A stretch of 64,000 nucleotides of DNA from Calditrichales bacterium (GTDB lineage: Bacteria > Calditrichota > Calditrichia > Calditrichales > J004). The notes below the pieces were generated by a model. It was not told where the DNA came from. It saw only the letters and a list, made by a program, of their open reading frames with translations, and did no database searches. The stretch covers positions 320,001-384,000 of the forward strand of contig OZ254086.1 of assembly GCA_965267575.1 (NCBI GenBank). Reading direction: 5' to 3'. The position numbers were made by a program, and so were the translations under genes. Below, one piece after another: positions 3,055 to 19,309 of this stretch (the stretch's first letter is position 1; each line of letters starts with the position of its first letter).

Positions 3055-5592
3055 CTACTTGATATATATGAGTTTTTTGATTTGGGTAACCGGTGCCCGT
3101 GAACGGTCGTCGAATTGCATGTACAACCGGTAAAAGTAAACCCCTGCTGTTACATCCGAGCCGTGGGCGTCCACCGCATCCCAGCCAATGGTATAGCGCC
3201 CGGGATTTTGCTGGCGGTCAACAAGCTGGTTCAGACGATGTCCGAGGATATCGTAGATTTCCAGTTTTACACGTGCCAGCGCGGGTACCGTGTAGCTGAT
3301 TTGCGTGGTGGGGTTGAAAGGATTGGGCGATGCCGTCAATTCGACCATGTCGGGCAAAGACGCCGATGGTCTGGCTATAACCCGTGTCGGCAAAAGGCTG
3401 GTGATCCACTCGCTTATGACCGATGCCCCGGCGGTATCGACGCGGTTACTTGCCAGCGGCGGCATGCGGTATTCAGCCAGGTTGATCATGCGCAGATATA
3501 CGACGGAGCTGTCTGGGTGGCCGGGCTTGATCCGGTCCGCACCTTCCACGCCAAGGTCGCCTAACTCAGGCGTTTCGTTTATTGTATTGGTAGCTTCCAG
3601 CATGGTGGCGTAGCGCAGGTCCATGTTGCTGCGGCCGGTGCCCTCCGGCTGGTGGCAGTAAGCACAGTTGCTGGCCAGGTAGGAGCGCGCTCTTTTTTCC
3701 AGGGGCTCTTCCGGGTCAAACGGATTGGGCCATTTCGGGAAATCACTGTAATCTTCACCAATATCCATTGTAAACAAATCGATGTGATTGTAGCTGCGCA
3801 GTTGGTTATCGCTTACACCATTCTCGTACACATGTTGTTTGTTGATTTGGGCCGTGCGCACACCGAGCACATAACCGGCCGCAGGTGTATGGCACTTCGA
3901 ACACTCGTTGCGGCTGGGGTAGTAGTGGCTGTGCGTATAGGAACCGCCTTCCGCGCTGGAATCAATGATGGTGTAATCCTTGGTGAGGCTGGTTTCCAGC
4001 AAGGAGGCGTCGGTGCCCTCCTCGTTCCAGAGATAGCTGTAGCCGTCCCACAGCTCGCCTTCCGATTGCTTCACAAGAAAGCGCGTTTCAATCAGCTTTT
4101 TGCTTTCGGGATTACCGCGCTCCAACTCCAGGTAAAAATTCTTCACAATAATAGCTTCCTGGGGAAACTCCCAGTGACCGTCTTCCGAAAAAGCGATCTG
4201 CGTAGTGCCGGGCAGGGCCAGAACACGTTCCTTATCAGCGCCATCGGACCAGAAAGGTGAGTTTATGGAATAGGGTATCAGACCGGGCGAAAGCTCGCGG
4301 GTTTGCATATCTGTATATAAACCCGATTCGGAAATGGTCTGCGGAACTGATGATGTCGTATCACCAATGGCTTCCTGGATGAACTTATAAATCTCGCCGC
4401 TAAGACTGACAATGTAGAGTTCGCCCTCTTCGTCTTCGGCAAAACTGGCAATGGAGTTAGGCGCAGTCAGCACCTTTTCATTGCTCTTCACTTCTCCATC
4501 GCGATAGTCCAGCGCCCAGACACTGCGCGAAACATAATCGCCGTAAAAATAAATGCCGTAGAAATCCGTCAGGTCATCCCCGCGGTAGACGTAGCCCCCC
4601 GTGATGGACTGCCCCTCATCATGGTCGTATTCGACAATCGGATCGATCAGCGGCTCGCCGGTGTCCTGGCAGTCATCGGAATAATAATGGAATCCTTCGC
4701 GGTGGTTCCAGCCGTAGTTTTTGCCGCTTTCGATGATATTTACCTCTTCCCACTTGCTTTGGCCCACGTCCGCGGCCCACAGCGTACCACTCACTCGATC
4801 AAAACTGAAGCGCCAGGGGTTGCGCAATCCGTAAGCGTAAATCTCCTCACGCCATTCGTTCTGGTTATCCGCATAAGGATTGTCCTGCGGGATGGCGTAT
4901 TCCAGGTTGGCGTCTTTATTATTTACATCAATGCGCAAAATTGAGCCCAGCAGCGTTGTCCGGTCCTGCCCGTTGCAATCGGGGTCGCCGCCACTGCCAC
5001 CATCGCCCAGGGCGATATACAAATAGTCATCCTGCCCGAATGCGATCATGCCGCCATTGTGATTGCTGTAAGGCTGAGGTGTGGTAAGCAGCACGCGCTC
5101 GCTTTCGGGATCGGCGGAGTCGGGATTATTGGAAACGAGAAACTCTGAAATAATACTGATCAACGGGTCAGCGTCGATATTATAGTGTACATAAAATTTG
5201 CCATTTTCTTTAAAATCCGGATGAAATGCAAGACCGAGCAGGCCTGCTTCACTGGGACCGTCATCCACTTTTCCGCTTATATCAAGAAATTCGCTGGCTT
5301 CGCCTTCGGACACATCGGCTTTGTTGGGAAAAACAAGGATACGCCCTTCTTTAAGAACAACAAATAAACGATCGCTCCCATCCGAGGCATGGGTCATAAA
5401 AATGGGCCGGCGCAAGTCCAGGTCGGCGAAAACGCGCTCCACCTTTAGCTGCGTTTGCACATCGCCGCTGCTGCTGATGAGCAGCGAAGTATTGGCCACG
5501 CGCTCTTCCAGCCCGTATGGCTGTGCAGAAACACTGTTATATGAGAAAGATATAAAAAGAAATAGAATAAGGGCCGGTATCGTTTTTGTCAT
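3055..5592 (-). CDS. Secreted PQQ-dependent sugar dehydrogenase (GSDH beta-propeller) fused to a two-CxxCH domain and a C-terminal sorting tail
   Basis: Signal peptide; GLLGLAFHP, NHNGG, GDGG, GLRNPWRFSFD, DVGQ, SITGGYVY; CSKCH and CAYCH; tail PNPFNPTT...AGVYFYRL...KKLIYIK. Confidence 0.88.
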   Translation of the reverse strand: MTKTIPALILFLFISFSYNSVSAQPYGLEERVANTSLLISSSGDVQTQLKVERVFADLDLRRPIFMTHASDGSDRLFVVLKEGRILVFPNKADVSEGEASEFLDISGKVDDGPSEAGLLGLAFHPDFKENGKFYVHYNIDADPLISIISEFLVSNNPDSADPESERVLLTTPQPYSNHNGGMIAFGQDDYLYIALGDGGSGGDPDCNGQDRTTLLGSILRIDVNNKDANLEYAIPQDNPYADNQNEWREEIYAYGLRNPWRFSFDRVSGTLWAADVGQSKWEEVNIIESGKNYGWNHREGFHYYSDDCQDTGEPLIDPIVEYDHDEGQSITGGYVYRGDDLTDFYGIYFYGDYVSRSVWALDYRDGEVKSNEKVLTAPNSIASFAEDEEGELYIVSLSGEIYKFIQEAIGDTTSSVPQTISESGLYTDMQTRELSPGLIPYSINSPFWSDGADKERVLALPGTTQIAFSEDGHWEFPQEAIIVKNFYLELERGNPESKKLIETRFLVKQSEGELWDGYSYLWNEEGTDASLLETSLTKDYTIIDSSAEGGSYTHSHYYPSRNECSKCHTPAAGYVLGVRTAQINKQHVYENGVSDNQLRSYNHIDLFTMDIGEDYSDFPKWPNPFDPEEPLEKRARSYLASNCAYCHQPEGTGRSNMDLRYATMLEATNTINETPELGDLGVEGADRIKPGHPDSSVVYLRMINLAEYRMPPLASNRVDTAGASVISEWITSLLPTRVIARPSASLPDMVELTASPNPFNPTTQISYTVPALARVKLEIYDILGHRLNQLVDRQQNPGRYTIGWDAVDAHGSDVTAGVYFYRLYMQFDDRSRAPVTQIKKLIYIK

Positions 5593-5799
5593 ATATCCCC
5601 CTGATTGTTGTCCTTATCTTCGTAACAAAAAACATTCCATAAAAATTCGGGAAAGGAATTTGAGGAACAAAAGAATAGTGAAAGTGTACGTTGCAAATCA
5701 TCATAGCTCAACAACAATCCGCACAAAATAAAGCAAAGATTGTATTGCTAAACGAAAATGTCTATTATTGCACGTTTTATTTATAACGGAGGAACAAGG

Positions 5800-8511
5800 A
5801 TGTATATCCTTAGATTTTTTTTGCTGGGCCTTTTTCTGGCCGTTTCCGCTTACGCCACCTCCTCCCCCAAGGATGGCAAAGTCCCCGATCATGTAAAGAA
5901 ATTTCTCAAAGAAGCGCAGGAGGATTATGCCAAAGGCAACCTGCCGGAGCTGATGCGCGCCTATCGCGAGCAGCGCGTTCACAACACCTCGTTGCAGAAA
6001 GCATCTGCCGTCTCAATGCAATTTCCTGTTCTCGTGGGCAAGTTTTCCGATTCGGGTGCGGGTGAACCTTACCCGGTAAGCAATCTGCAAAAACAGCTTT
6101 TTGACGGCCCCTGGCCCACGGGCACTATGACCGACCATTACGCGGAAATGTCCTACGGCCAGTTTGACCTGTCCGGTGATGTACTGGGCTGGTACACGGC
6201 GCCCAAAACAAAGAGCTATTATGCCGGTGAATCCAACGGACTGGAGCGCTTTGACGCCAACACCGGTGAATTTATCCGTGAGCTTATCCTGGCCGCGGAT
6301 GACAGCGTCGACTTCAGCCAATATGACAATGATGGCGATGGCCGCCTGGAGACAATCTTTATTGTGCATGACGGTGAAGGCGGCGAATGCGGCAATAACC
6401 CCAATATCTGGTCGCACCGCTGGCGTCTTTCGGCCTGGCCCACCGGCTCCATCACCGTGGATGGCGTTACCATTGACGACTACATCATTCAGCCGGCCTG
6501 GAACTGCGACGAACGCGGTATGATCGAAATCGGCGTTTTCAGCCATGAATTTGGCCACGCGCTGGGCCTGCCCGACTTGTATGACCGCGACGGCAGCAGC
6601 GACGGCGTGGGGACCTGGTGCCTGATGGCTTCCGGCAGTTGGGGCGGCGACAACAGCCACCCGGCGCGGCCCAGCCACATGAACGCCTGGTGCAAAGAAC
6701 AGCTGGGTTGGGTGGTTCCGGAAGTGCTAACAGAACACCAATTCAATCGCGCTGTTCAGGCAGGCGCCCTGGCGGAGGATGTAATTAAGGTTTGGAAGAA
6801 TGCCGAGATCGCGCCCTGGACAAGCCGCTATGGCGAGGACCTGAGCGTGGGCCGAGAATATTTCCTGATAGAAAACCGTACGGCGCTGGGTTTTGACAAC
6901 TACCTGCATGGCGGCGGCGGCATGCTCATCTGGCATGTGGACAACAGCGTCTCCTCGCAAAACGACAACGAGGAGCACCCGCTGGTGGACCTGGAAGAAG
7001 CCGATGGCAGCATGAGTTCGCGTGGTGACGGCAGCGATCCTTTCCCGGGTTTCCTGGGCAAGCGCCTTTTTGACCACACAACATTCCCCTCCAGCCACGA
7101 TTATGACGGCATAAATACTTATGTCAGCGTCTCCAACATCAGTGACGCGGACAGCATTATGTATGCCGATTTTCAATTCAACGAACGCATTATCCTGAAG
7201 CTGCGCGGCAGCTGGTGGGAAGAAACTGCCGGTAACGGCAACAATGTCCCCGAAAGCGGCGAGACACATAATATTTATTTCTCATTCATCAATAGCGGCA
7301 AAGGCGAAACAGCGGGCACCGCCACATTAAGCTCGGGCAGTGAAGACGTGACCGTTGAAACGGCCGAAGTCCAGCTAAATGATCTGCAGAACGGCGTGGA
7401 TCTGACTGCCGCGGAGCCGTTTACAGTCTCCTTTGCGCCCGCTGCTATGTCTCAAATCGTGGATTTCGAGATTGTGATCCAGGCCGGTGAGACAGTTGAT
7501 TCACTGCTGTTCAGCGCCGGGCTAAACCCGGATTTGCTGCTTGTGGATGATGACTACGGCGCGGATGAAGAAGAAGTGACGATCGACGTGGAAGAGTACT
7601 ATTTTGATGTGGCAACGGCCAACGGTCATGTGTATCATCACCTGAACCTGGCTTCTCCCGCCAAATTTGACAGCAGCTTCGCCGATTACTTTCAAACCGT
7701 TGTCTGGTTCAGCGGCTCCCGTGAAAACACGCTGATTGACAGCAGCATGCTGGACGCGCTGACCTACTTTCTGGATAACGGCGGCCACCTGCTGCTGAGC
7801 GGACAAAATCTGCTGGGCAACCACGCCGATCATCCGCTGATGAGCGAATACGCCCGTGTTGCGCTTAAAAAAGAAGACAATAACAACTACCGCATCAACG
7901 GGATGGAAGAAGATATTATTGGCCAAAACTATCCTGAGTTCTATATCTCGGGCAAAGAGGGCGCGGATAACCAAAGCGTGCAAAATTCAATTACCCTGCT
8001 TTTTGGCGCTTCTCCAATCTTCCGTTACTGGAATCCCCGTTTTGACGACCTGTACGCGGCCTCGCGCATGGAAAGCAGCCAGAAGCAGTATAAGATGGTA
8101 TTGTTCGCCTTTGGGCTGGAGGCCATCACCGACCGCGACGAGCCGGAGAACAGCGCCAACCTGCGCCGTGAACTGCTGCATGACGTCATGAACTGGTTCG
8201 ATCTGCCCGTGGGTATTGAGGAATCGGAACCGGCTTTACAGCAACCGCGCAGCTACAGTCTGCAACATAACTATCCCAATCCGTTCAACCCGTCCACAAC
8301 CATAGAATACAATCTGGCGCAGGCCGGATTTACGGAGTTGACCGTATTTGACGCCAGCGGACGCAAGGTTGCCACACTTGTAAGTGGTCAGCAGCAGGCA
8401 GGTCCTCACAAGGCCACGTTCAATGCCGCGCAGCTTGCCTCAGGCGTCTACTACTACCGCCTGACCAGCGGCCGTTTCGAACAAACCCAAAAAATGTTGT
8501 TAATCAAGTAA
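5800..8511 (+). CDS. Secreted M6 (immune inhibitor A) family metalloprotease with C-terminal sorting tail
   Basis: [65 protein letters not shown] tail. Start moved to ATG 5800 after GGAGG. Confidence 0.92.
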   Translation: MYILRFFLLGLFLAVSAYATSSPKDGKVPDHVKKFLKEAQEDYAKGNLPELMRAYREQRVHNTSLQKASAVSMQFPVLVGKFSDSGAGEPYPVSNLQKQLFDGPWPTGTMTDHYAEMSYGQFDLSGDVLGWYTAPKTKSYYAGESNGLERFDANTGEFIRELILAADDSVDFSQYDNDGDGRLETIFIVHDGEGGECGNNPNIWSHRWRLSAWPTGSITVDGVTIDDYIIQPAWNCDERGMIEIGVFSHEFGHALGLPDLYDRDGSSDGVGTWCLMASGSWGGDNSHPARPSHMNAWCKEQLGWVVPEVLTEHQFNRAVQAGALAEDVIKVWKNAEIAPWTSRYGEDLSVGREYFLIENRTALGFDNYLHGGGGMLIWHVDNSVSSQNDNEEHPLVDLEEADGSMSSRGDGSDPFPGFLGKRLFDHTTFPSSHDYDGINTYVSVSNISDADSIMYADFQFNERIILKLRGSWWEETAGNGNNVPESGETHNIYFSFINSGKGETAGTATLSSGSEDVTVETAEVQLNDLQNGVDLTAAEPFTVSFAPAAMSQIVDFEIVIQAGETVDSLLFSAGLNPDLLLVDDDYGADEEEVTIDVEEYYFDVATANGHVYHHLNLASPAKFDSSFADYFQTVVWFSGSRENTLIDSSMLDALTYFLDNGGHLLLSGQNLLGNHADHPLMSEYARVALKKEDNNNYRINGMEEDIIGQNYPEFYISGKEGADNQSVQNSITLLFGASPIFRYWNPRFDDLYAASRMESSQKQYKMVLFAFGLEAITDRDEPENSANLRRELLHDVMNWFDLPVGIEESEPALQQPRSYSLQHNYPNPFNPSTTIEYNLAQAGFTELTVFDASGRKVATLVSGQQQAGPHKATFNAAQLASGVYYYRLTSGRFEQTQKMLLIK

Positions 8512-8526
8512 CCAAGAGGACAACGT

Positions 8527-11500
8527 ATGAGATATTCACGCTTTATTCTTATTTGCCTTTCTTTTCTGTTTCTGGTTTCGGCCACTGTGCAGGCTTCGGA
8601 CGCTTTTAAAGAAGCGCGTCTGCAATACATCAAAGACCGTGAACTGCCGGCGCAGATTGAGTTTAAGCAGCAGGCGCCCACGGCGGATACTTTTTTTGAT
8701 GGTTTCCGCAGCCGGTTTAAGGTTAGTGAGGAAAACAGTTTCAGGGTGACTGCTGAACAGCGGGACAACCTGGGCCAGACACACCTGCGTTACAAGCAGT
8801 ATTACAAAAATGTCGAAGTGGACGCGGTCCAATACATTCTTCACACGCAGAATGAGCGGGTCATGAAAGCCAACGGCCATCTTGTGCGCGGCCTTGATCT
8901 GGATGTGACGCCAAAGCTCAATGAGCAGCGGGCCCTGGAGCGGGCGCTGAATCATGTAAGCGCCGAGACCTACATGTGGGAAAGCAAAAAGAATGAAGCG
9001 GCGCTTAAGCGCGAACAAAACGATCCCCAGGCTACCTTTTACCCCAAAGCGCAGCTGCTGGTTAGTGCCGGACGCAATACCCTGAAAGCTGAAAACTTCC
9101 GCCTGGTTTACCGTTTTGACATCTATGCTCAAGAACCCTTTGGGCGCTATTACGTGGATGTGGACGCACACACAGGTGAAGTGGTCGATCAGCTTACGCG
9201 CATTCACACCGGCGATGTGGACCTGTTGGGTGAATCCCTTTACAACGGCCGCGTGGACATGACCGGTTCCGATGAGTCCTTTCCTTCGATTTTGCCGGCG
9301 GTGTGGCACCTGGATGACTTTAACGCCTACGGCGGCGAAGGCTTTAGCTGGTGGATGGGCGATGAAGGCATCGGCGGTTATGACAATGACTGGTATAAGG
9401 TGCTGGATACCGATCCCGTTTACCTGGAAAACGGCGGCACGCTGACCTTTGTGCACCGCTACGGTTTGGAAGAGCCGGGTGGCGAGCCCGCGGGCTATAA
9501 TGGCTGGGACGGCATCAACGTGCGCATCTCCACGGACGGCGGCTATACCTGGGAAGTTTTGACCAATCCTTCCGTGGCCTACAGCCGCAGCAGTTTGTAC
9601 AGCTTTGGATTCCAGCACGGTGAAGGCGAAGGCGTACCCGGCTGGACCGGCGTGCAAAACAGCTGGACCGAAGTATCGTTCGACCTCTCCGCTTATGCCA
9701 ACCAGAACGCGCGCATCCGCTTTGCGTTTGCTTCCGACCCGGGCTATGCCACGGCGGATAACAGCGCCCTGTTCGGCTGGCAGGTAGATAATATTGAGAT
9801 AAAGGATGGCAATGACGCTTCCGTTTTGAGCAACAGCGGCGTGGCCGATTTTGTCACCGCGCGCAATAAAGAAGAGATTGTACCCGGAAAATACCGCCTG
9901 CGTTCGGTGGCACGAAGCGGCGTTTACACCTTCGATGCCCTGAACGGCACTAGCTATTCCCTTGCCGTGGATGTGGTTGACAACGATTCGCTCTTTGCCG
10001 ACAGCCGTCACGGAGCAGGCGTAAGCGCGCACTGGGGCAGTGAGAAATCGTACGACTATTTTTATATTTACCACGGGCGTGACAGCTACGACGACAACGG
10101 CTCGCCGATCCTGAGCTATGTCCATTTCGACGACGGCTATTTCAACGCTTTTTGGGATGGACAGCGCATGACGTTTGGCGACGGCACCAGCAACGCTTCC
10201 CCGCTTACCAGCGTGGATGTGGTGGCCCATGAATTGACACACGGCGTTACCGGCAATTCGGCTGGCCTCATTTACCGTGATGAGTCCGGCGCCCTGAACG
10301 AATCATTCAGCGATATTTTTGGAACGGCGGTGGAGTGGTACGCGGAAGGCGAAAGCTTTGATTACCTCATAGGCGAGGATTTTCAGACATTGCGCAGCAT
10401 GAGCAGCCCCAACCAGTTTGGCGATCCCGATACATACCAGGGCCAGAACTGGAACTTTGATCCCAACTTTGACAACGGTGGCGTACACATCAACAGCGGC
10501 GTGCAGAACAAGTGGTTCCACCTGCTGGTTGAAGGGGGCAGCGGAACAGACGATAACGGACGGAGCTACACTGTTTCCGGCATCGGTATGGAAAAAGCGC
10601 TGCAAATCTCATATCGCAACCTTACCGTTTACCTGACGCCCTCATCCGAGTATTTTGACGCGCGGCTGGGCGCGATCAATTCAGCGGCCGATATTTACGG
10701 CGGCGATTCCCCTGAGTACCAGGCCGTGATCGATGCCTGGGATGCCGTGGGTGTTTACTATCCGACATTTGAGCCCAATATCGTGGCCGATGCCGATACG
10801 CTGAATTTCCTGGCAGAAGCCGGCGTAGGCGTGGACAACGGTAAAGTCTCCTTCACCAATTATGGTTTGGATACGCTTGAAATTACTTCGGTGGAGCTGG
10901 TGAATAACAACGGCTTTACAATTGAAGCCGAGCTGAACCTGCCGCTGGAACTGACCTACGAGCAGAGCCTGACGTTAAACCTGCTTTTCGCCCCGGTTGA
11001 AGCAGGCAGCCAGGTTACCGAGCTTACCATGCAAACAAACGATCCCGCCAATCCAACCATGGTGATTGCCCTGAACGGTAAAGGCTACGCCATCAGCGCC
11101 GCCCAGGAAGGAACAATCTACGCGGTCTCTTCTGCTTCGGCGGTTTACAACGTGGACGCAAGCGGCGCGGCGAGCAAGCTGGGCGACAGCGGCTTTGAAG
11201 AGATCACCGGGATGGCCGTGCGCACCTCCAACAAGGAGCTGATCGGCTTTATGCTGGATAACAGCAGCACGCGTCTTGTACGCATCAACAGTGCCGGTGG
11301 CGATGCCTACCTGTTCCGTGATGTGGATGAGACACAGCTGCGCGCCATGGCCTTTGATTCGGACAGCGATTCGTTGTTTGCCATGCGCTACACCAGCGGG
11401 CAGCTTTACCATGTGGACATCAACAGCGGCGCGGCAACGGCTATCGCTTCAACCGGCATACGCCGCGTGGAGAGCATGACGCTTGATCCGATATCCGGTA

Positions 11501-12060
11501 AACTGTATGCCGTAACGCAGCAAAACGCCCTGTATGTCATCGACCGCACGGATGGCTCCAACAGCAACATCGGCGCGATTAGCATGGACAACGTGCGCGC
11601 CCTGGCCATGGATGAAAACGGCCAGCTTTTGGGTATCGCCAGCGGCGAAAGCGAAGATCAGCTTGTGGTGATCAATCCGGCCAACGCGGTAGCCACGGTG
11701 ATTGGCGGCGCGGGTGTGAGCGGCTTAAACGGCCTGGCGGTTTATGGCACCAGCCCGGTCACTTCCCTTGAGGATGAAGCTTTGGCGCAACAGCCCAATG
11801 TATTTGCCCTGGAGCAGAATTATCCCAACCCGTTCAACCCGTCCACGGTGATAAGCTATGCCTTGCCCAAAGCCAGCACGGTATCGCTTTCCGTTTTTGA
11901 TGTAACGGGCCGTGAAGTGGCGCGACTTGCCGAAGGCAGCCAGCCGGCGGGCATCTACAGCGTCACCTTTGATGCGTCGGGTCTCTCCAGCGGACTCTAT
12001 TTCTACAAGCTGCAGGCCGGTAGTTTTGTGCAAACCCGCAAAATGTTGCTTGTACGATAA
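8527..12060 (+). CDS. Secreted M4 (thermolysin/bacillolysin) metalloprotease with inserted beta-sandwich module, Ig-like domain, beta-propeller and sorting tail
   Basis: FTP/PepSY-like propeptide ([19 protein letters not shown]), [42 protein letters not shown] tail. Confidence 0.92.
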
Positions 12061-12085
12061 ACGGACTTTAAAAAGTCCACTCTCG

Positions 12086-12113
12086 GAAGGCCGTCCATTG
12101 GGCGGCCTTTTTT
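12086..12113 (+). terminator. Rho-independent terminator after the M4 gene
   Basis: AAGGCCGTCC-ATT-GGGCGGCCTT hairpin followed by a T run. Confidence 0.8.
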
Positions 12114-12159
12114 GTTTGCGTGGAATAAAAGAAAGGTTTGAAGTTAATGGTCTTGGGGT

Positions 12160-12284
12160 TATTAACGACCTTCAGGATAAGCGGCGCAATGCGCTCTCCA
12201 TGTTAGTGATGAATTAAATGGTAACTCAAATCTATAAACCAAGCAAGGCCAGTGAGTTGCGTCCGCTTGATGCCGTGGTTATGC
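12160..12284 (-). other. attC site of cassette 3
   Basis: Minus strand: R'' GCATAAC ... AAGCGGACGCAA / TTGCGCCGCTT inner arms ... R' GTTAATA. Confidence 0.8.
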
Positions 12285-12353
12285 GACAATGAGTCGTGAT
12301 GGAAACACTTCCCTCTGTTTAGATTATTCAGTTCTAAAATTGCGACAAAGCGT

Positions 12354-13163
12354 TTAAAACTCAACAGTTGGTTCCGGTTGATACAAAACATTAGTGTATT
12401 CACCCATAGCTGCGAGGCCCTGATTAATCCATTCGACCAAGCCGCTGTTGACTTGCGGCAATAGCGAAACTTCCACGACAAGCATCGTAAAGAGGCCTAT
12501 CCAATATACCCGATGAACGGCTCCGTGAGAAAACCAGTCATATAGGATCCCGATAATTATAAATAAACTACAACTGAGGGCGCCTATTGGCAGGGACAAG
12601 GGATGAAAACCGCTTAGGAACAGAATCAATCGAAAGAAACCAGCTCCAAGACCTATTGCGCTGGCAATAATAATCAGTCTCTTGTGAGCCTGAAGACGGT
12701 TCTTTATGGCCATATAAATACCGGCAGAGTAGAATAAAACGAAAAGAACCAGATTCGAAAGTATCAGCGCACCATAAAGTAACCACACCTGGGGCTCTCC
12801 TGTACGCATTGCCTCTTCTACACGGACGGTCAGTACAAGGATGCCGGTCAGCGTCATTATAATAACTAACACAATACTAAACCGACCCAGGGTCATATGC
12901 AGGGTATCCTTTCCCTTGGCCATCAATATTGCTTGGAGGGGAAACAGCAGATACCAAAGAAAAAAGGACCAACCATGCAGGTGTAAGGGAAACCCCGCCG
13001 GTGCATATGTGCCACTAATAATTGGTCCAAAATACGTGAAAGAGAATCCCGCAAAACCGGTTATACTGATCAGAATGGCAAGCGCTGGATAAAAGAGGTA
13101 ATCTCTATTTGTTTGTATTGTGCTTAGATTCATTTTTCCCAGAATACTCATCCGTAATCCCAA
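12354..13163 (-). CDS. Cassette-encoded multi-pass membrane protein with several His residues in or near TM helices
   Basis: About seven hydrophobic segments; HLHG, LHMTLG, AHKRL. The start could be ATG 13151 or further downstream. Confidence 0.75.
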   Translation of the reverse strand: MGLRMSILGKMNLSTIQTNRDYLFYPALAILISITGFAGFSFTYFGPIISGTYAPAGFPLHLHGWSFFLWYLLFPLQAILMAKGKDTLHMTLGRFSIVLVIIMTLTGILVLTVRVEEAMRTGEPQVWLLYGALILSNLVLFVLFYSAGIYMAIKNRLQAHKRLIIIASAIGLGAGFFRLILFLSGFHPLSLPIGALSCSLFIIIGILYDWFSHGAVHRVYWIGLFTMLVVEVSLLPQVNSGLVEWINQGLAAMGEYTNVLYQPEPTVEF

Positions 13164-13199
13164 ATATCTTTAATATACTGATTTTGAATAGCATGAGCC

Positions 13200-13323
13200 G
13201 CATAACGCTGCATTTCAGCCGCCGCCTCGACGGACTATCGCGCATTAACTAACTTCATATTAACTACCTAATATTCCAAGACCACCATGCTTCGCTCGGT
13301 CGGCTGCAAATGTTTTGTTAGGG
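13200..13323 (-). other. attC site of cassette 2
   Basis: Minus strand: R'' CCCTAAC, CATTTGCAGCCGACCG ... GGCGGCTGAAATG, R' GTTATGC; one extra base on one arm, as expected for attC. Confidence 0.9.
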
Positions 13324-13334
13324 CCCTTGGATCT

Positions 13335-14447
13335 TTACGCATTTTTAAAACTAAAATAAAAATGTTTATCACCTATTGGTATACCACTTTTTTGAAGCAT
13401 CAATTCTTTCATTAATTCTGGGCTTATACCAAAAATATATTTTTTATCTTTTTTTAGCTGTATTTTAAAATATTTATTAGTAGGGGTTAAATTAGGATTC
13501 TTTATTAAAATACAATTTCCTTCTTTTTTAGAAATAAATGCAAAATACTTTGATTTGCACAAATTAAAATACTTTCTCAATTCATTATTCCACTTATTTT
13601 CCCACTCTTGACGCCCTAAAATCATACTTTCTGAATTCATCAATATTTTGGGATGTTTCGTTATACTAGATGAAGTAACCCAAACATTATCCCTAACTAA
13701 ACATGTTATAATATCAATAAATTCATATTCTTTTAAATCCCGTGTTATTTCTTCTTTGTTCGAAAATTGTATTGTAAAATTTGATAAATCAGGTGGATAT
13801 AAGATATAAGTTATATCTTTGTGCCAAAAAAATCCCTCCTTATCAATACCTGCTCCAAATATGCCCCCACCTACATTCGATTTCATTAAAGGATTATGAA
13901 TGCCTAAATATTGCATAAAGCATAGCATGGATTGTAGCAAATGTTCAGAATCTATATTGCCGCTCTTCATATAATTCAAAAGGCCTTCTATAATAATTCT
14001 TATCTCATTATTCAAACTTCCCATTGATGCTAAAGAATCAAAAGAATGAAAAATTTCTGGCTCCTTATTAAACCATCCCATAAGAAAGGAATCTTTTTCA
14101 CTATTATATCCCATTAATATAAATTTTGTGGGTTGTTCAATTAAGGTTGGATTTGATTTAGATATTTCTACTAATGATTCTTGAATGTCCATATAGGATA
14201 GTTTTATCTTTAATTCGGAAACAATTTTTTGTGCTGTAGTAACATCTCCACTATAGGATACAGCTATGTAATTTGTTAAAGGAATAATTTTTACGCCAGT
14301 TTCTTCGACAACTTCGCCTTTAATATTTCTCTCTTGGAGTTCTCCGAATGACGAGAATGACTCAGTTGGTTCTTTGTAGTGAGTTATAGCTGTATCGCTT
14401 ATACAGAATACTGAATTTTGATGTTTCCATGCCAAAACGTATGTCAT
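13335..14447 (-). CDS. Cassette-encoded hypothetical protein, probable Ntn-hydrolase (proteasome beta/Anbu-like) N-terminal domain
   Basis: Starts MTYVLAWK...ISDTAIT, later GVKII, SYSGD, MGS, VGGG; very AT-rich. Confidence 0.6.
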   Translation of the reverse strand: MTYVLAWKHQNSVFCISDTAITHYKEPTESFSSFGELQERNIKGEVVEETGVKIIPLTNYIAVSYSGDVTTAQKIVSELKIKLSYMDIQESLVEISKSNPTLIEQPTKFILMGYNSEKDSFLMGWFNKEPEIFHSFDSLASMGSLNNEIRIIIEGLLNYMKSGNIDSEHLLQSMLCFMQYLGIHNPLMKSNVGGGIFGAGIDKEGFFWHKDITYILYPPDLSNFTIQFSNKEEITRDLKEYEFIDIITCLVRDNVWVTSSSITKHPKILMNSESMILGRQEWENKWNNELRKYFNLCKSKYFAFISKKEGNCILIKNPNLTPTNKYFKIQLKKDKKYIFGISPELMKELMLQKSGIPIGDKHFYFSFKNA

Positions 14448-14471
14448 AATATTAACCTATTATATTATGTG

Positions 14472-14576
14472 CCCTAACGCTGGGCATAACGCGCTGGGCA
14501 ATACACTGTCTAAGCCCATGCACTTCTCGAATTGGCTAAAGGCGTGATCCAGTCGCCGTTGATGCCCTTGTTATAA
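14472..14576 (-). other. attC site of cassette 1
   Basis: Minus strand: R'' TTATAAC, GGGCATCAACGGCGACTGG ... CCAGCGCGTTATGCCC, R' GTTAGGG. Confidence 0.9.
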
Positions 14577-14591
14577 GCTACAAAAGTTAAA

Positions 14592-15095
14592 TTAAATGCC
14601 ACCATTTTCAGTTTTGTAGTATTTCCATTTTTTGGTTTTACAATTGAACTTAAAAAATATAGTAGTCCAATCACTTAAAGAAATGGAATAGTTAAGATTG
14701 ATCTGATTCTTGGAAACATTTTTAACTAATTTCCCATGATATGGAATAACAGTAATTTCAATCAGATCATTTTTGACTTTTAGTGGAAATATTTTCACTT
14801 GAATTAACGTGTTACCATTTTTATTGTAAATATATTCTTTATTTGTATCGGTTAAAATTGTGATCTCTTTTCCATTTACTAAGTCTGGTATATTTTTAAA
14901 AAGACTAGTTTCTTCAAGATAGATAGTTTCATATTTAAATGGATTGACAGAATATCTTGAATAAAATGAATCTATTTCGACTGTGTATTTTTCCAATGCA
15001 ATTAAATAAAGGGAATCATTTTCACTCACAGATTGTGCCTTGATGAAAATCATTGGCAGAAATATAATAACTAGTATTAATTGTGATTTTTTCAT
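14592..15095 (-). CDS. Cassette-encoded small secreted hypothetical protein
   Basis: Signal peptide MKKSQLILVIIFLPMIFIKA|Q; AT-rich; bounded by the attI-like site and an attC. Confidence 0.8.
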   Translation of the reverse strand: MKKSQLILVIIFLPMIFIKAQSVSENDSLYLIALEKYTVEIDSFYSRYSVNPFKYETIYLEETSLFKNIPDLVNGKEITILTDTNKEYIYNKNGNTLIQVKIFPLKVKNDLIEITVIPYHGKLVKNVSKNQINLNYSISLSDWTTIFFKFNCKTKKWKYYKTENGGI

Positions 15096-15115
15096 TCTAT
15101 CATTTCACAGTTAAA

Positions 15116-15242
15116 GCTTATAACAAGTATTAGACGTACTAAAATCCATGTTATAACATTCCTAATTATGAAAATTTATATGTGGAAAAAATTCCATATA
15201 AGACGCCTATAGCGTGGTATAGATGGAAAATTTTCCATATAA
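15116..15242 (-). promoter_or_regulatory. attI-like site with upstream repeated motifs
   Basis: Core GTTATAA (15124-15118) preceded by CGTCTAATACTT, with no attC-type long palindrome. Two 19-nt near-identical repeats (15183-15201, 15224-15242) lie upstream. Confidence 0.6.
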
Positions 15243-15387
15243 AAACACGGTTTTAGTAACCCTATTTTATTTTACACTAATATAACCACGAATATCTGAA
15301 ATAACAGCTTTTTCTGCACCGTTTAACAAATATCCCAGCCTTTAATATTGGCGTTTGATTTTGTCTTTCAGGCAACTTTGTTTGCGG

Positions 15388-15496
15388 AAACCGATGAATC
15401 GGTTTGGAGAGTATTATGTGCGTTTGTACCCACGTCTGAAGTCGTGGGATAAGGGTTTCAGAGGCAGATCATTAACCCATGACTTAAGTCATGGGT
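15388..15496. repeat. REP-like palindrome cluster
   Basis: AAACCGATGAATCGGTTT (15388-15405), CCCACGTCTGAAGTCGTGGG (15429-15448), perfect 22-bp ACCCATGACTTAAGTCATGGGT (15475-15496). Confidence 0.75.
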
Positions 15497-15518
15497 AGGA
15501 AAAAAAGACAAGACAGCA

Positions 15519-15707
15519 GGATGGGCAGGATTTATTATATGGCAAATTCGGCGCGAAATCATGTCCCCCTTAGAAAAGGGGGCAAGGGGGTTGTCCTTCA
15601 CCTATAATGGCAAAAGCCGCATTTACAACCCCTCAATCCCCTTTGTTAAGGGGAAAGCAGGTACTCAGGTTATTTATAAAACTTAATTTCTTTTATCCTG
15701 CCCATCC
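15519..15707. repeat. Nested miniature inverted-repeat elements
   Basis: Outer perfect 13-bp IR GGATGGGCAGGAT (15519-15531) / ATCCTGCCCATCC (15695-15707). Inner imperfect ~30-bp IR (15564-15594 / 15625-15654), each arm with a CCCCTT-Nn-AAGGGG hairpin. Confidence 0.75.
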
Positions 15708-15728
15708 CGTTAATCCTGTCAAAACATA

Positions 15729-18700
15729 CTACCTAAGCAAGATCATCTTGCGCACGGCGCGGTAGCCCTGGGCCTCTATGCGGTAGAAGTATGTGCCGGA
15801 AGCTACCTCTCGGCCCAGATGGTCACGGCCGTCCCAGACCACTTCATGCCTCACGCCGGCGGAGTATTTACGGGCATCCAGCAGACGCCGCACGATGGCG
15901 CCGCGGATATCGTAGATAGTCAGATTCACCGGCGCGTTTTCCGCCAGGCTAAAGGCGATCCGCGTAGTGGGGTTAAAGGGATTGGGGTAATTGGGCATAA
16001 GGTTAAACCGCGCGGGCCCCTTCACAAAGGATTTCTCCAGCGTGGTCAGCGTTCCCTGGATCTCGATATTGTCGATGGCCCAGCCCCAACCGTTCACAAA
16101 CGGGTCGGCAAAGAGACGGAAACGGATCAGGATCGTATCACCGGCGCTGAAATGATCCAGTAAATTCAGCTCGTGGTCCACGTAGAGATCAAATTCGCCA
16201 TCCTGGTCGTTTGTGTAGGCATCCAGCCAGGCCTGATCGTAACGGGCATCGTAGCCGTCGGCCAGCGGAATCCAGTCCGCCGCGTTCTTCGTGGCCTCCA
16301 CAACCACGTAATCCCAGAAATCTTCATCACCAAACTGGCTGCCGGATTCACCCGGTTCAATCAGCGCGATGTCGCGGTAGCGCATAAAGGCGTTATCGGC
16401 GCTAACCTTGATCGGGCTGGACAACGTATAGGTAATGCCGCGGTCGTTTTCATAAGGGTGATCGCTGTGAATGGCCCAGTCGCGGTTAAACTTATTGACC
16501 AGTTTGCGTTGAAAGCCCTCGCCGAAGAAATCCTCATCGCCGCCATCGCTGAAGTCATTGGTATAGGTATCGCGCGGGGCGGCCAGAATGTAAAATTCCG
16601 CGTCGCGTTCTTCACTGCGCAAAGGGCGATCGTCTTCATACGAAACCAGCTTCAGGGTGACCGTTTGCGATTCCTGCCCGTCAAAAGGCGCCACGAACGT
16701 GGTATCCCCTTCGGCGGAAGCGCCCAGCGAATAAATCCATACATCATTGGCATACACGCGCGTGGAGTCGTAATTGCCGCGCAGCGAAGCATTGATTTCA
16801 AAACCGGGTAGAGGGTTGTATTGCGCGCTGTTGAAGCGCGGAGATAAAGCTACTTTGGGAGGCTCATAACCGGAAAGCTGCCCCAGGCTGATCGTCCAGA
16901 TGCCGCGGCCGTGTGTCGCCGCCACCACCTGGTCATTGACAATCTTCAGCTCAAAAACCGAAACGTTGGGCAGGTTGCCGGCCAGCGGGTGCCAGCTCGC
17001 GCCATCATCGCTGGATTCAAAAATGCCGATATCCGTTCCCGCCCACAGGATGTCCGTATCGGGGATATCCACCAACGAATAGACCGCCACATCGGGGAAG
17101 CCATTGTTGCTGCTGCTGCCGGAGCCGAAGCCGCTGATGTCTTCCCAGCTGCCGCCCCAGTTGGTCGTGCGCAGAATTTTTGGCCCCTGGGCGTAAGAGA
17201 ATAAGGCATAGGCCGTCTGCTCATCCGTGGAGTGCGTGGCAATACCGCTGATGCGTCCCAGCGGGTTTTCGTTGTAGCCGCTTACCGTGCTAAAGGTGTA
17301 GCCGCCGTCCGTGGACAGATAGAGGCGATCGTTGCTGTTAAAGTTGCGCCCTGCCCAAATGGTTTGCGGGTTGGCCGTAGAGATTTCGATATGGGTAAAA
17401 CTGCTGGTGCCGACCCAGCCGGCGGGACTGGCCACAAGCTCCCAGCTGCTGCCAAAATCGGCCGAGCGGTAAATGCCGGAAGCCCCCGCCGCAAAAACCA
17501 CATCCGGGTCCTGCTGCGATCCGGCGATCTTGGTGTAAAAAGGCGCGTTGCCGCTGCCCGTTTCAAGGCCAATCGTGGCGGAACTAAACGACTGCCCGCC
17601 ATCGCTGGATTTGGAGATGCCGTTAAACTGGCTGGAGGCCAGGATCAGGTCGGGGTTCGTGTAATGCCAGACGGTCTGGAATCCATCGCCGCCTTTGCGC
17701 ACAATCCAGTTGGAGCCGGCATCCGCATCAACACCGGCCGGCGACTGGTACGTATTGTTGTCCTGCATGCCGCCAATGTATTCGCTGGCGCCGTTTTTCT
17801 TATCCACGCCGTAAAACTGCGAGGTGTTGTAGCCGTTTTCCGTGTGGCTGAATGTGCTGCCGCCATTATCCGAGTAAGAGACGCCACCGTCATTACAAAC
17901 AATCATGCGGTAGCTTTGCGATGCCGAATCGGTTACGACCATGACGATATTATGCTGGTCAACATGCACGCCCTTGCTGCTGCCGCCAAATTGCCCGTAT
18001 CCGTCGGTTACAACCGTTGTTTCAATTTTGTCATCATTCTCCACATCGATGCGCCACAGGTTTATGCCCCCAACAAAAACGATGTCTTCATCAAAGGGAT
18101 GCACATTGATGGTATTGTCGTACCAGCCCTGGCCGCCCAGCCAGTTGTAGGCGCTGCCGGTTTTTTCCGAGGCTGCCGCCCAGGTCTGACCATAGTCGCG
18201 CGAGATGTAGAGCGTAGCTCCGGTGCCTGACGCACCTCCATCAGCTGAAATATAAAGCCGTGATGGATCGGTGGGCGCCACAGCAATCTCCATCCGCCCA
18301 ACGCCGCTGAACGGCGCGGAAACGAGGCTCCAGCTTTCACCGCCGTCCTCAGAGCGCGCCACGCCCGTGCCCTTAACCGTGGCATATTGCCGGCTGAAAT
18401 CGGTCGGGTCGGCGATAAGGTGCTCTATGCGACTGCTGTTGCTGTATTCTTTGCTCCAGTTTGCACCGCCATCTGTGCTTTTCCAGATACCGGAAGAAGA
18501 GGCCGTGGAGCTGTTGTGGTTAAATCCGGCGGCCGTGGAAGCCAGAATGATATTTTCATTATCCGGGTCGATGGCCAGCCGCGTCACATTCTGGAAATCC
18601 AGATTGGAGGTGCTTTGCAGCAGTTGCCAGCTGGCGCCGCGATCCGTTGTTTTCCAGATGCCGCTGCCGTCAACCTGGTCCACGTTGCCAAAGCCCTCGC

Positions 18701-19292
18701 CTGTTCCCACGTACATCACATCGGGATTGGATGGCGCCTGCACGATCGCACTGGTGGCAAAATTGCCCAGATCCGGCGTCATTAGCGTCCAGCTTTGGCC
18801 GGCATCCGTTGTTTTCCACACCCCGCCGCCAACCGAACCGGCATAAAAGGTGCCGGCCGTCGGATCATCGGCATCCACAACCAGGCCGCGCGTGCGTCCC
18901 GAAACATTGCCCGGTCCGCGCTCCACCCACGTAGCCAATCCGCTGCTTTTTTGCAGTGTGCTTTTGCGCTGCTGCCACTCGGCGATGCTGCTCACATTAT
19001 AGGCCTTCAGCAACTCGCTAACGCGATAATTGAAAGGATATGCCGGCCCGCCCTCGCGGTAACGAATGCCATAAAGGTATTCATAAAATTTATCCGGGGC
19101 ATCCATCCGCAGCATGCCTTTTACGCGCTGCTTGCGTTGGGCAACTGCCTCATCCGCCTGCGCTTTCTTTTCGATCGCCGCCTTGCGGATAGTGGCATCA
19201 TCGCTAATAACCGGTGCTTTGGTCAGAATATGCTGCAGGCCGGTAAAAGCCGCGGCAAGGATGATCAGCGTGATAAACAGACGCTTGGCCAT
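15729..19292 (-). CDS. Large secreted Asp-box/BNR (VPS10/GH74-like) beta-propeller protein with beta-sandwich module and sorting tail
   Basis: WVERGPGNVSGRTR, many S/T-x-DGG-x-S/T-W repeats, [18 protein letters not shown] tail. Start at ATG 19292 (the ORF track uses TTG 19307). Confidence 0.85.
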   Translation of the reverse strand: MAKRLFITLIILAAAFTGLQHILTKAPVISDDATIRKAAIEKKAQADEAVAQRKQRVKGMLRMDAPDKFYEYLYGIRYREGGPAYPFNYRVSELLKAYNVSSIAEWQQRKSTLQKSSGLATWVERGPGNVSGRTRGLVVDADDPTAGTFYAGSVGGGVWKTTDAGQSWTLMTPDLGNFATSAIVQAPSNPDVMYVGTGEGFGNVDQVDGSGIWKTTDRGASWQLLQSTSNLDFQNVTRLAIDPDNENIILASTAAGFNHNSSTASSSGIWKSTDGGANWSKEYSNSSRIEHLIADPTDFSRQYATVKGTGVARSEDGGESWSLVSAPFSGVGRMEIAVAPTDPSRLYISADGGASGTGATLYISRDYGQTWAAASEKTGSAYNWLGGQGWYDNTINVHPFDEDIVFVGGINLWRIDVENDDKIETTVVTDGYGQFGGSSKGVHVDQHNIVMVVTDSASQSYRMIVCNDGGVSYSDNGGSTFSHTENGYNTSQFYGVDKKNGASEYIGGMQDNNTYQSPAGVDADAGSNWIVRKGGDGFQTVWHYTNPDLILASSQFNGISKSSDGGQSFSSATIGLETGSGNAPFYTKIAGSQQDPDVVFAAGASGIYRSADFGSSWELVASPAGWVGTSSFTHIEISTANPQTIWAGRNFNSNDRLYLSTDGGYTFSTVSGYNENPLGRISGIATHSTDEQTAYALFSYAQGPKILRTTNWGGSWEDISGFGSGSSSNNGFPDVAVYSLVDIPDTDILWAGTDIGIFESSDDGASWHPLAGNLPNVSVFELKIVNDQVVAATHGRGIWTISLGQLSGYEPPKVALSPRFNSAQYNPLPGFEINASLRGNYDSTRVYANDVWIYSLGASAEGDTTFVAPFDGQESQTVTLKLVSYEDDRPLRSEERDAEFYILAAPRDTYTNDFSDGGDEDFFGEGFQRKLVNKFNRDWAIHSDHPYENDRGITYTLSSPIKVSADNAFMRYRDIALIEPGESGSQFGDEDFWDYVVVEATKNAADWIPLADGYDARYDQAWLDAYTNDQDGEFDLYVDHELNLLDHFSAGDTILIRFRLFADPFVNGWGWAIDNIEIQGTLTTLEKSFVKGPARFNLMPNYPNPFNPTTRIAFSLAENAPVNLTIYDIRGAIVRRLLDARKYSAGVRHEVVWDGRDHLGREVASGTYFYRIEAQGYRAVRKMILLR

Positions 19293-19309
19293 GGTATGTC
19301 CTTTCAATG

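Follow-up and report, generated by a model that had tools for sequence, protein, structure and literature searches.

A predicted proteasome-like Ntn hydrolase with an unmatched C-terminal domain, encoded in an attC cassette of a Calditrichales bacterium

A 64-kb stretch of the genome of a Calditrichales bacterium (GenBank assembly GCA_965267575.1, contig OZ254086.1, positions 320,001 to 384,000; hereafter the window, in whose coordinates positions are given unless another sequence is named) contains a minus-strand open reading frame (ORF) for a protein of 370 amino acids (aa), P0001. Read from its letters alone, P0001 had been described as a protein with an N-terminal threonine that resembles proteasome beta subunits, encoded in an integron cassette and possibly serving as a defence or stress effector. 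The locus raises the questions of whether the product has the fold and active-site residues of a proteasome-type N-terminal nucleophile (Ntn) hydrolase, whether its gene is an integron cassette, and what such an enzyme would do there. By modelled structure, we place P0001 in a family of proteasome-like Ntn hydrolases with an insertion between strands S3 and S4 and a C-terminal domain of unmatched fold; at this locus the gene lies in an attC cassette, whose mobility is putative.

Modelled fold and conserved residues of P0001

The frame of P0001 runs uninterrupted from an ATG start through 370 codons, and because it does so in DNA of 31-32% guanine plus cytosine (GC), we do not regard it as a chance ORF. 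The translated N-terminus, MTYVLAWKHQNSVFCISDTAIT, begins MTYVLAW, and the motifs picked out in the sequence-only reading follow the MT start in the order given there: ISDTAIT (residues 16-22), GVKII (51-55), SYSGD (64-68), MGS (142-144) and VGGG (192-195). Four metagenome proteins are 71-74% identical to P0001 and all of the same length, and when 1.84 billion cluster representatives were searched exhaustively with HMMER, 450 relatives scored E ≤ 1e-3 (172 of them E ≤ 1e-10 and 14 E ≤ 1e-30), the majority being about 350 aa long with an alignment beginning at residue 1. The same-length homologs, the 450 representatives and the position of the motifs on the most conserved columns therefore mark the ORF as more than chance. 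A word-based search with the full family profile returned the close homologs and one other protein only. The nearest Atlas clusters are labelled "hypothetical protein", and their commonest phylum is Pseudomonadota.

An AlphaFold2 model of P0001, computed with the family alignment, had a predicted local distance difference test score (pLDDT) of 94.4 and a predicted template modelling (TM) score of 0.93. Its residues 1-217 contain strands S1-S5, helices H1 (residues 69-82) and H2 (88-104), the strands between H2 and H3, helices H3 and H4, and strands S9-S10, which make up the four-layer alpha-beta-beta-alpha sandwich (strands S1-S10, helices H1-H4) of the class. Foldseek against the PDB gave at least 500 matches at E ≤ 1e-3, with all 41 among the matches listed being proteasome entries; the best match had an E-value of 3.8e-9, with TM scores of 0.65-0.70 on the target for 20S beta subunits. 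VIA, a structure aligner independent of Foldseek, was run over 48,161 PDB representatives and superposed the model on a 20S beta subunit with a Z score of 17.4 and a root mean square deviation of 2.6 Å across 179 residues, followed by Anbu (15.0), HslV (14.1), BPH (12.0) and connectase (10.5), and it scored other Ntn hydrolases (acid ceramidase, NAAA and penicillin acylases) below 10. When the family profile was compared with the PDB, the best match was HslV (E 3e-7), and dozens of further HslV chains and of 20S alpha and beta chains came after it. These data show a proteasome-type fold in the model of residues 1-217.

Conservation was assessed on an alignment of 82 of the 154 family proteins, chosen for being full-length and alignable from residue 1, to the exclusion of fragments, gene calls extended at the N-terminus and most of the long forms described below. 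M1, D18, K53, G67, G194 and W208 are invariant in all 82 sequences, and T2, T22, G35, E49, G143, S144, G193, G198, D211 and R252 are at least 90% conserved. The positions of Asp18, Lys53, Gly67 and Ser144 match Asp17, Lys33, Gly47 and Ser129 of the proteasome, and Thr2, the candidate nucleophile, is the equivalent of Thr1 (with Thr counted as residue 1, the family residues read Thr1, Asp17, Thr21, Lys52 and Gly66). The spacing of 14 between Lys53 and Gly67 equals that between Lys33 and Gly47, and the profile alignment sets Lys53 on Lys33 of HslV and G143-S144 on the GS(G) motif that contains Ser124/129. The HslV alignment begins at family position 34, so the equivalence of Thr2 and Asp18 is drawn from strand order, spacing and the ranges of the structural superposition, which pairs the model from residue 2 with the chain from residue 1.

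N-termini were read by eye in the 154 family proteins. MT starts 125 of them, an alternative start codon followed by T another two, and Ser replaces Thr2 in five (MSY or MSF); ten have a longer called N-terminus with an internal M/V-T aligned to Thr2, and the remaining 12 are fragments or lack the Thr. Thus, 127 of 154 have Thr at position 2, which predicted removal of the Met would expose as the first-residue Thr (or Ser) of the class. The sequence-only reading had staked its proteasome-beta-like assignment on an Ntn sandwich and on conservation of the Thr after Met, and both were found, the fold with agreement among the AlphaFold2 model, Foldseek, VIA and the family profile. The alignment further shows the catalytic-type residues to be intact and under purifying selection. 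Between strands S3 and S4 the family carries 19-20 extra residues (about 24-45) with a conserved SSFGE motif, which is invariant in the close subfamily; Gly35 within it is at least 90% conserved overall.

P0001 fell below the gathering threshold of PF00227, the class criterion for a peptidase of the family T1 kind, and the NCBIfam model for archaeal proteasome beta matched it below threshold over residues 46-91 (E 0.0023). Across the alignment, PF00227 matched 14 of the 82 members at E ≤ 0.05, and one long-form relative of 605 aa exceeded its cut-off (25.3 versus 22.4 bits). To judge from these scans, the family is unnamed in the libraries used.

The part of P0001 that follows the core was unrecognised, as the sequence-only reading had stated, and spans about 150 aa (about 220-370) rather than the roughly 170 aa given there. 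In the model it forms a well-packed second domain, in which three strands are followed by a long helix, four more strands, a short helix and one last strand, and which contains the nearly invariant Arg252; modelled alone, the domain reached a pLDDT of 86.5, with residues 1-17 of the fragment disordered. Its best Foldseek match in the PDB had an E-value of only 0.059, the best VIA match over 48,161 chains a Z score of 5.7 across 51 residues, and the best BFVD match an E-value of 6.9e-3 at a TM score of 0.14; PHROGs gave no match, and an Atlas search with residues 225-370 gave leads at 0.78-0.81 only, within reach of shuffled sequences. This absence of a match does not prove a new fold. The long forms of the family (569-605 aa) carry 230-380 extra C-terminal residues, some sharing the Ntn domain only and others adding a further C-terminal extension: the extra part covers about residues 350-589 in P0073 and about 220-600 in P0080 and P0095, where the usual C-terminal domain is wholly replaced. 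A scan of the long forms for fused domains detected the Pfam proteasome domain only, and PHROGs and PADLOC none in the extra part.

The attC cassette array and its origin

Three minus-strand ORFs, that of P0001 being the middle one, occupy a 2.5-kb island of low GC (31-32%, versus mostly 51-58% in the 10 kb on each side). The island is bordered by two large, convergent genes whose products, an M4 peptidase and a sortilin/BNR protein, are secreted (Table 1). Sequence reading and DNA folds revealed after each ORF an imperfect hairpin of 110-125 nt with terminal boxes of the attC type, for which the consensus is RYYYAAC in R'' and GTTRRRY in R'. Their L''/L' inner stems have bulged bases on the L'' side (two in attC_B), and in attC_A and attC_B a 3' spacer, CAGC, stands ahead of GTTA. 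In each cassette the 5' end, which is formed by the last bases of the preceding R', is exactly complementary to the cassette's own R'', the 5'-end/R'' pairs being GTTATAAGC/GCTTATAAC for Cassette A, GTTAGGGC/GCCCTAAC for Cassette B and GTTATGC/GCATAAC for Cassette C; the last seven bases of the attC_A R' begin Cassette B, and the GTTATAAGC of Cassette A is read from 15126 to 15118. This complementarity holds for 8-9 of 8-9 bases in three cassettes in a row, including a flanking base that continues the match, and would follow from a past circularisation of each unit at its own attC. As far as the letters can tell, this signature is the strongest internal evidence for cassettes. The crossover positions that delimit the cassettes follow established knowledge of attC sites.

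Table 1. Features of P0001, of the cassette array and of the flanking genes (window coordinates)
Feature	Position	Strand	Description
P0001 ORF	13335..14447	-	Proteasome-like Ntn hydrolase (modelled) plus C-terminal domain; 370 aa, stop included in coordinates
P0001 residues 1-217	13797..14447	-	Proteasome-beta/HslV-type alpha-beta-beta-alpha core; AlphaFold2, Foldseek, VIA, profile
P0001 residues 245-370	13338..13715	-	C-terminal domain, fold unmatched; AlphaFold2 full model and domain alone
Cassette A	14478..15125	-	ORF 14592-15095, 167 aa, signal-like hydrophobic N-terminus, no family
Cassette B	13206..14477	-	1272 bp; P0001 ORF and attC; from the G-TT crossover of the upstream R' to the G of its own R'
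Cassette C	12166..13205	-	ORF 12354-13163, 269-aa membrane protein, weak DUF2306 match
attC_A (upstream cassette)	14471..14578	-	R'' GCTTATAAC (14578 to 14570), R' GTTAGGGC (14478 to 14471)
attC_B (P0001 cassette)	13200..13324	-	R'' GCCCTAAC (13324 to 13317), R' GTTATGC (13206 to 13200)
attC_C (least canonical)	12160-12284	-	R'' GCATAAC ... GTTAATA; by eye only
M6 immune-inhibitor-A-like peptidase	5758-8511		Type IX secretion C-terminal sorting domain
M4 thermolysin-like peptidase	8527-12060		Propeptide domains; type IX secretion C-terminal sorting domain
Sortilin/BNR repeat protein	15729-19307		Type IX secretion C-terminal sorting domain

Using a covariance model, we searched for the same sites independently of reading by eye. 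The alignment of the window's three attC sites by MAFFT was too poor, and the model (R1) was therefore built from a relative, a locus in a genome of the same family (L035, G034:C1:4000-16600) where minus-strand ORFs alternate with attC sites in a typical integron array next to an intI gene. R1 was made from eight aligned L035 sites, with an RNAalifold consensus of 18 pairs, 8 of them with compensatory changes, and it recovered other L035 sites, not used in training, with scores of 76.4, 60.0 and 20.2 bits. On the window (both strands, filters off), it gave nine matches at E ≤ 10, of which the best (13200-13323, minus strand, 19.2 bits, E 0.24) and the second (14472-14576, minus strand, 13.9 bits, E 2.9) flank the P0001 ORF on the correct strand and agree with the boundaries read by eye, although neither E-value is significant alone. 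It is unlikely that the top two would both flank P0001 on the correct strand by chance. A scanner based on regular expressions and stems had been tried and was replaced by the covariance model as unspecific, since it returned 171 matches in the genome and only one of the three window sites.

No match to the integron integrase model TIGR02249 above its curated cut-off of 265 bits occurs anywhere in this 4.73-Mb genome. The best one is a 298-aa integrase-like frame, about 46 kb from the cassettes, which matches below the cut-off in pieces of 127.6 and 99.7 bits and lacks model positions 180-237. IntI matches above the cut-off were found in 41 of 86 genomes of the phylum, among them six of the nine other genomes of the same family, and in none of the 14 control genomes; the phylum is thus an unusually integron-rich lineage. 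Many of the phylum's IntI matches lie at contig ends, where arrays break assemblies. In the rest of this genome, R1 found nine sites, three of them at 64-74 bits, at C1: 4671324-4671420(-), 4463917-4464013(+), 1235797-1235894(+), 1236581-1236678(+), 1224371-1224467(-), 1225308-1225405(-), 3834134-3834224(-), 2471320-2471413(+) and 181465-181570(+). Two pairs of these are about 0.8-0.9 kb apart, and the sites look like other small arrays or single scattered cassettes. Since nine further sites occur with no integrase, this is an integrase-less genome that carries dispersed attC sites of the lineage's type. With at least two attC sites on the same strand and no IntI nearby, the array is a cluster of attC sites lacking an integrase (CALIN), an element whose definition and origin are given by Cury et al. 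2016 (PMC4889954). The integron cassette of the sequence-only reading is accordingly upheld, being bounded by attC according to sequence, hairpins and R1, and is refined to a member of a CALIN.

A full-length match to the family profile was found in one of the 86 phylum genomes, namely this one (382 bits, positions 1-349). Partial matches with E-values of 1e-4 to 1e-7 over positions of about 35-170 were found in 22 other genomes and at a second place here (C1:4333654-4334028, a 185-aa frame), in frames of 184-235 aa; from this length and from the profile's cross-match to HslV, we take them to be probable HslV. The GC deviation and the sole full-length match among 86 genomes together argue for horizontal acquisition. 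Genomic contexts were examined for the window and for the one further locus that a metagenome scan returned, L029, a 13.6-kb contig that encodes a homolog 32% identical to P0001. There too the gene lies in a low-GC island (33-40% versus 50-66%), adjoining a DUF559 endonuclease and an IS110 transposase, and R1 found no attC at L029. A 63-nt tandem repeat, present as two complete copies and the beginning of another, adjoins the gene of that IS110-family transposase (L029 9893-10036). No relative was returned by tblastn with P0001 against plasmid and phage records or with P0063 and P0010 against plasmids, by a search of viral contigs, or by scans of species genomes with P0001 and close-subfamily patterns.

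Neither of the other two cassette proteins matched an ATPase or protease family in Pfam, PADLOC or NCBIfam. Promoter-like sites in 12000-15800 numbered below the shuffled mean (11 versus 15.0), and the promoter/terminator scan was not above expectation. When contigs of four public runs were compared with 9000-19000, one run gave full cover and three runs with the same species label gave none, flanks included.

Several repeats were observed around the array. Just upstream of Cassette A, a short palindrome, TTATAACAA...GTTATAA, lies at 15118-15156 and is matched by R1 on both strands, and two copies of a 26-nt palindrome, ATATGGAAAA(A/T)TTTTCCATAT, stand 41 nt apart at 15175-15245; in one public run the contigs break, with variant letters at 15149-15258, exactly at the palindromes upstream of Cassette A. 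Candidate identities for these are a remnant attI, a secondary site of insertion or an operator. The 600-nt non-coding stretch from the array to the sortilin-like gene contains a perfect 20-nt palindrome (15477-15496) and, at 15566-15653, an inverted repeat of 29 nt (CCCCTTAGAAAAGGGGGCAAGGGGGTTGT with its partner). In L035, one TGA was counted inside the intI match, and two minus-strand ORFs of 389 aa (3144-4313 and 9871-11040) are each followed by an identical stretch of 260 nt. Within it lies an attC whose R''/L part is shared while its R' differs, a pattern suggestive of cassette duplication or of an element inserted within the array.

Proposed enzymology and possible roles

The most likely reading of these data is that P0001 acts by itself as a Thr-nucleophile peptidase and reached this genome by horizontal transfer. 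We put the probability that it is an active Thr-Ntn hydrolase that acts without a dedicated partner and was acquired horizontally as a single-gene cassette at roughly 60%. P0001 would then be a cytoplasmic, propeptide-less Ntn hydrolase of the proteasome family. Methionine aminopeptidase would take off Met1, as in HslV, a step we propose because Thr is permitted as second residue, and the free amino group and hydroxyl of Thr1 would attack a peptide or amide bond, with Lys53 and Asp18 (the equivalents of Lys33 and Asp17) as proton relay and Gly67 (Gly47) at the oxyanion position. The S3/S4 insertion with SSFGE and the 150-residue C-terminal part would set substrate access, specificity or assembly: the insertion probably restricts or selects substrates, because in connectase the same site bears the specificity lid (Fuchs, Alva & Lupas 2021, PMC8665760), and possible ligands of the C-terminal domain are a substrate, a signal or neighbouring subunits. 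Since P0001 has no gene for an ATPase partner next to its own, it probably works alone or with housekeeping factors, and its cellular role would be accessory and niche-specific.

Several observations weigh against this reading. P0001 matched no Pfam or PADLOC family at E ≤ 0.1 and passed no threshold of Pfam, NCBIfam or PADLOC; the late start of the HslV alignment leaves Thr2 and Asp18 outside it; and Asp166 and Ser169 of the proteasome have no clear conserved counterpart in the 82-sequence alignment, where the corresponding loop keeps GG only. On the side of the cassette, besides the E-values of the two R1 matches, attC_C was not found by R1 in the window, and folding of the attC regions as DNA gave weak z-scores (-0.08 to -1.78). 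As to the enzyme, peptidase activity and Met removal are predicted properties; like proteasome subunits, P0001 might be active only once assembled into a ring, and the term hydrolase is not guaranteed, in that connectase, a homolog with an S3/S4 insertion in the same place, is a ligase (PMC8665760).

The alternatives concern the role of the protein and are partly compatible with the enzymology proposed. P0001 could be a single-gene anti-phage effector of the abortive-infection type, whose C-terminal domain senses a phage cue and frees a restrained Thr protease. The argument for defence is drawn wholly from the fact that cassettes in general are enriched in defence genes: the gene is a single-gene, AT-rich integron cassette, and in a 2024 preprint (10.1101/2024.07.02.601686) many cassettes of chromosomal integrons are reported to encode defence systems. 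The sporadic distribution (one of 86 phylum genomes) would fit it, as would a domain of unmatched fold that could serve as sensor and the variable region of L029, where the DUF559 endonuclease beside IS110 has weak PADLOC matches to DpdF and mREase_II. However, PADLOC-DB 2.0.0 contains no match for P0001, for the L029 homolog or for P0010, P0044, P0063, P0080 and P0073, nor for the cassette neighbours, which look like genes for secreted and membrane-type proteins rather than defence genes. The words proteasome, Ntn, HslV and protease are absent from the accessible main text of two papers that screened integron cassettes, a full-text literature search joining proteasome homolog and anti-phage found no paper, and none of the best-ranked literature on proteasome-like or Ntn proteins and phage defence deals with a proteasome homolog by title and abstract. 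The defence or stress role suggested by the sequence-only reading thus gained no direct support and was neither supported nor refuted, with no PADLOC match and two contexts only, and we regard the anti-phage effector as unlikely. A slightly lower probability goes to its extension to the whole family, in which a previously unrecognised single-gene immune or conflict module, traded between phyla as a cassette, would keep the propeptide-less protease restrained by the C-terminal domain, then of new fold, and an SSFGE lid until a cue from infection or stress releases it.

Two further alternatives concern the catalytic outcome and the assembly, and we consider both of them quite improbable, to the same degree. 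P0001 could join or transfer peptides in a sequence-specific manner, as a ligase or transpeptidase, or process a narrow range of substrates as a peptidase, in either case working as a connectase-like monomer. The insertion of about 20 residues lies at S3/S4, the site of the connectase specificity element (PMC8665760), its SSFGE and Gly35 are conserved as described above, connectase has a VIA Z score of 10.5 and an extra C-terminal domain of its own (PMC8665760), and the Atlas leads for residues 225-370 include a connectase cluster. The score of that lead, 0.78, is low and within the range of shuffled sequences, though; the P0001 model has helices H1 and H2, which connectase lacks (PMC8665760); 20S beta, Anbu, HslV and BPH all outscore connectase in VIA; and the Pfam connectase families are unmatched at E ≤ 0.05 in the 82 members. 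Alternatively, P0001 could form a self-compartmentalising ring protease in the manner of HslV, BPH and Anbu, degrading unfolded proteins under stress with its C-terminal domains outside the ring. The closest folds are all ring-forming, the assemblies of HslV, BPH and the 20S proteasome being stacked rings of six or seven subunits, but the HslV-sized match elsewhere in the genome, the cassette location and the 1-in-86 distribution are ill-suited to a housekeeping stress role. Finally, the gene could be silent or in decay, a passenger that serves no function in its present host, as would fit the absence of an integrase and of a recognisable Pc promoter and the promoter-like sites in 12000-15800, which do not exceed shuffled expectation. 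This is very improbable in view of the intact 370-codon frame in AT-rich DNA, the retention of all catalytic-type residues and the four full-length homologs at 71-74% identity.

Under the favoured reading of a stand-alone peptidase, the gene is proposed to work without its neighbours, and a direct test by expression in a laboratory host is therefore possible; Thr2, Asp18, Lys53, Gly67, Ser144, SSFGE, Trp208, Asp211 and Arg252 are candidates for mutagenesis. One uncharacterised family of proteasome homologs gains a concrete, putatively mobile context, a single-gene attC cassette, and is provided with a confident two-domain model that has an unmatched C-terminal fold. If P0001 proves to be a defence protein or a specific ligase or peptidase, it would widen the known range of bacterial proteasome-type enzymes; as an immune module, it would be without precedent among proteasome homologs both in having a defence role and in being known to move by attC recombination; and as a general peptidase, it would be one more accessory cassette gene.

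Relation to known proteasome-like proteins and cassette arrays

HslV is a single-domain subunit of about 175 aa that starts with Met-Thr without a propeptide and is encoded next to hslU, a gene for an AAA+ ATPase. P0001 shares with it the Ntn core (Z 14.1), the best profile match (E 3e-7), the Met-Thr start without a propeptide and the D-x-x-x-T, K and G(S) motifs in the same order. It differs in its 370 aa, its S3/S4 insertion, its C-terminal part of 150 residues and its sporadic, cassette-borne occurrence. We rejected the identification of P0001 as HslV on account of its two domains, the lack of an adjoining hslU-type ATPase gene and the HslV-sized match elsewhere in the genome. As a group, 20S beta subunits, Anbu and BPH gave the highest structural scores, and the equivalents of Thr1, Asp17, Lys33, Gly47 and Ser129 are conserved; however, the identity is 12-17%, and P0001 lacks a propeptide and recognisable Asp166 and Ser169 and has the extra C-terminal domain.

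Connectase (the MJ0548 family) resembles P0001 in its proteasome-like fold, its S3/S4 insertion and its extra C-terminal domain. In contrast to P0001, it is an archaeal ligase without H1 and H2, and its Pfam family, PF09894, is unmatched in the P0001 family. An identification of P0001 as connectase was rejected on these grounds, with H1 and H2 present in the model and no Pfam connectase match in the 82 members.

The array itself resembles CALIN elements, as described in PMC4889954, in having at least two attC sites on the same strand, no nearby intI and one promoterless-looking ORF per cassette. Features of its own are the number of only three cassettes, the location between convergent housekeeping-type genes and the atypical third attC. 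The CALIN call was made here by reading and with R1 rather than by IntegronFinder's model.

The closest likeness by description is to classes among the 22 new proteasome-like subfamilies reported by Fuchs, Alva & Lupas 2021 (PMC8665760). In that paper, RPC, DAH, GPH/"DGH" and FC4 have added C-terminal domains, of which the RPC, DAH and DGH ones resemble no known structure, and no informative gene context or known function is given for the new classes; among the papers listed in a literature search on these classes, none reports a function for them by title and abstract. Section 3.3 of the paper describes connectase as lacking H1 and H2 and RPC as lacking H2. RPC was rejected as the class of P0001, whose model has H2. 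With the classes that carry C-terminal domains, P0001 shares the conserved active-site residues, the absence of a propeptide, the unmatched C-terminal domain and a proteobacterial leaning, the classes being found mostly in Proteobacteria and Pseudomonadota being the commonest phylum of the P0001 family's Atlas clusters; integron cassettes go unmentioned in the accessible text of PMC8665760, whereas P0001 lies in an attC cassette. The P0001 family may be one of the catalogued classes, with GPH/"DGH" and DAH (representatives WP_152342571.1 and WP_085249540.1), compared here by description only, as the candidates.

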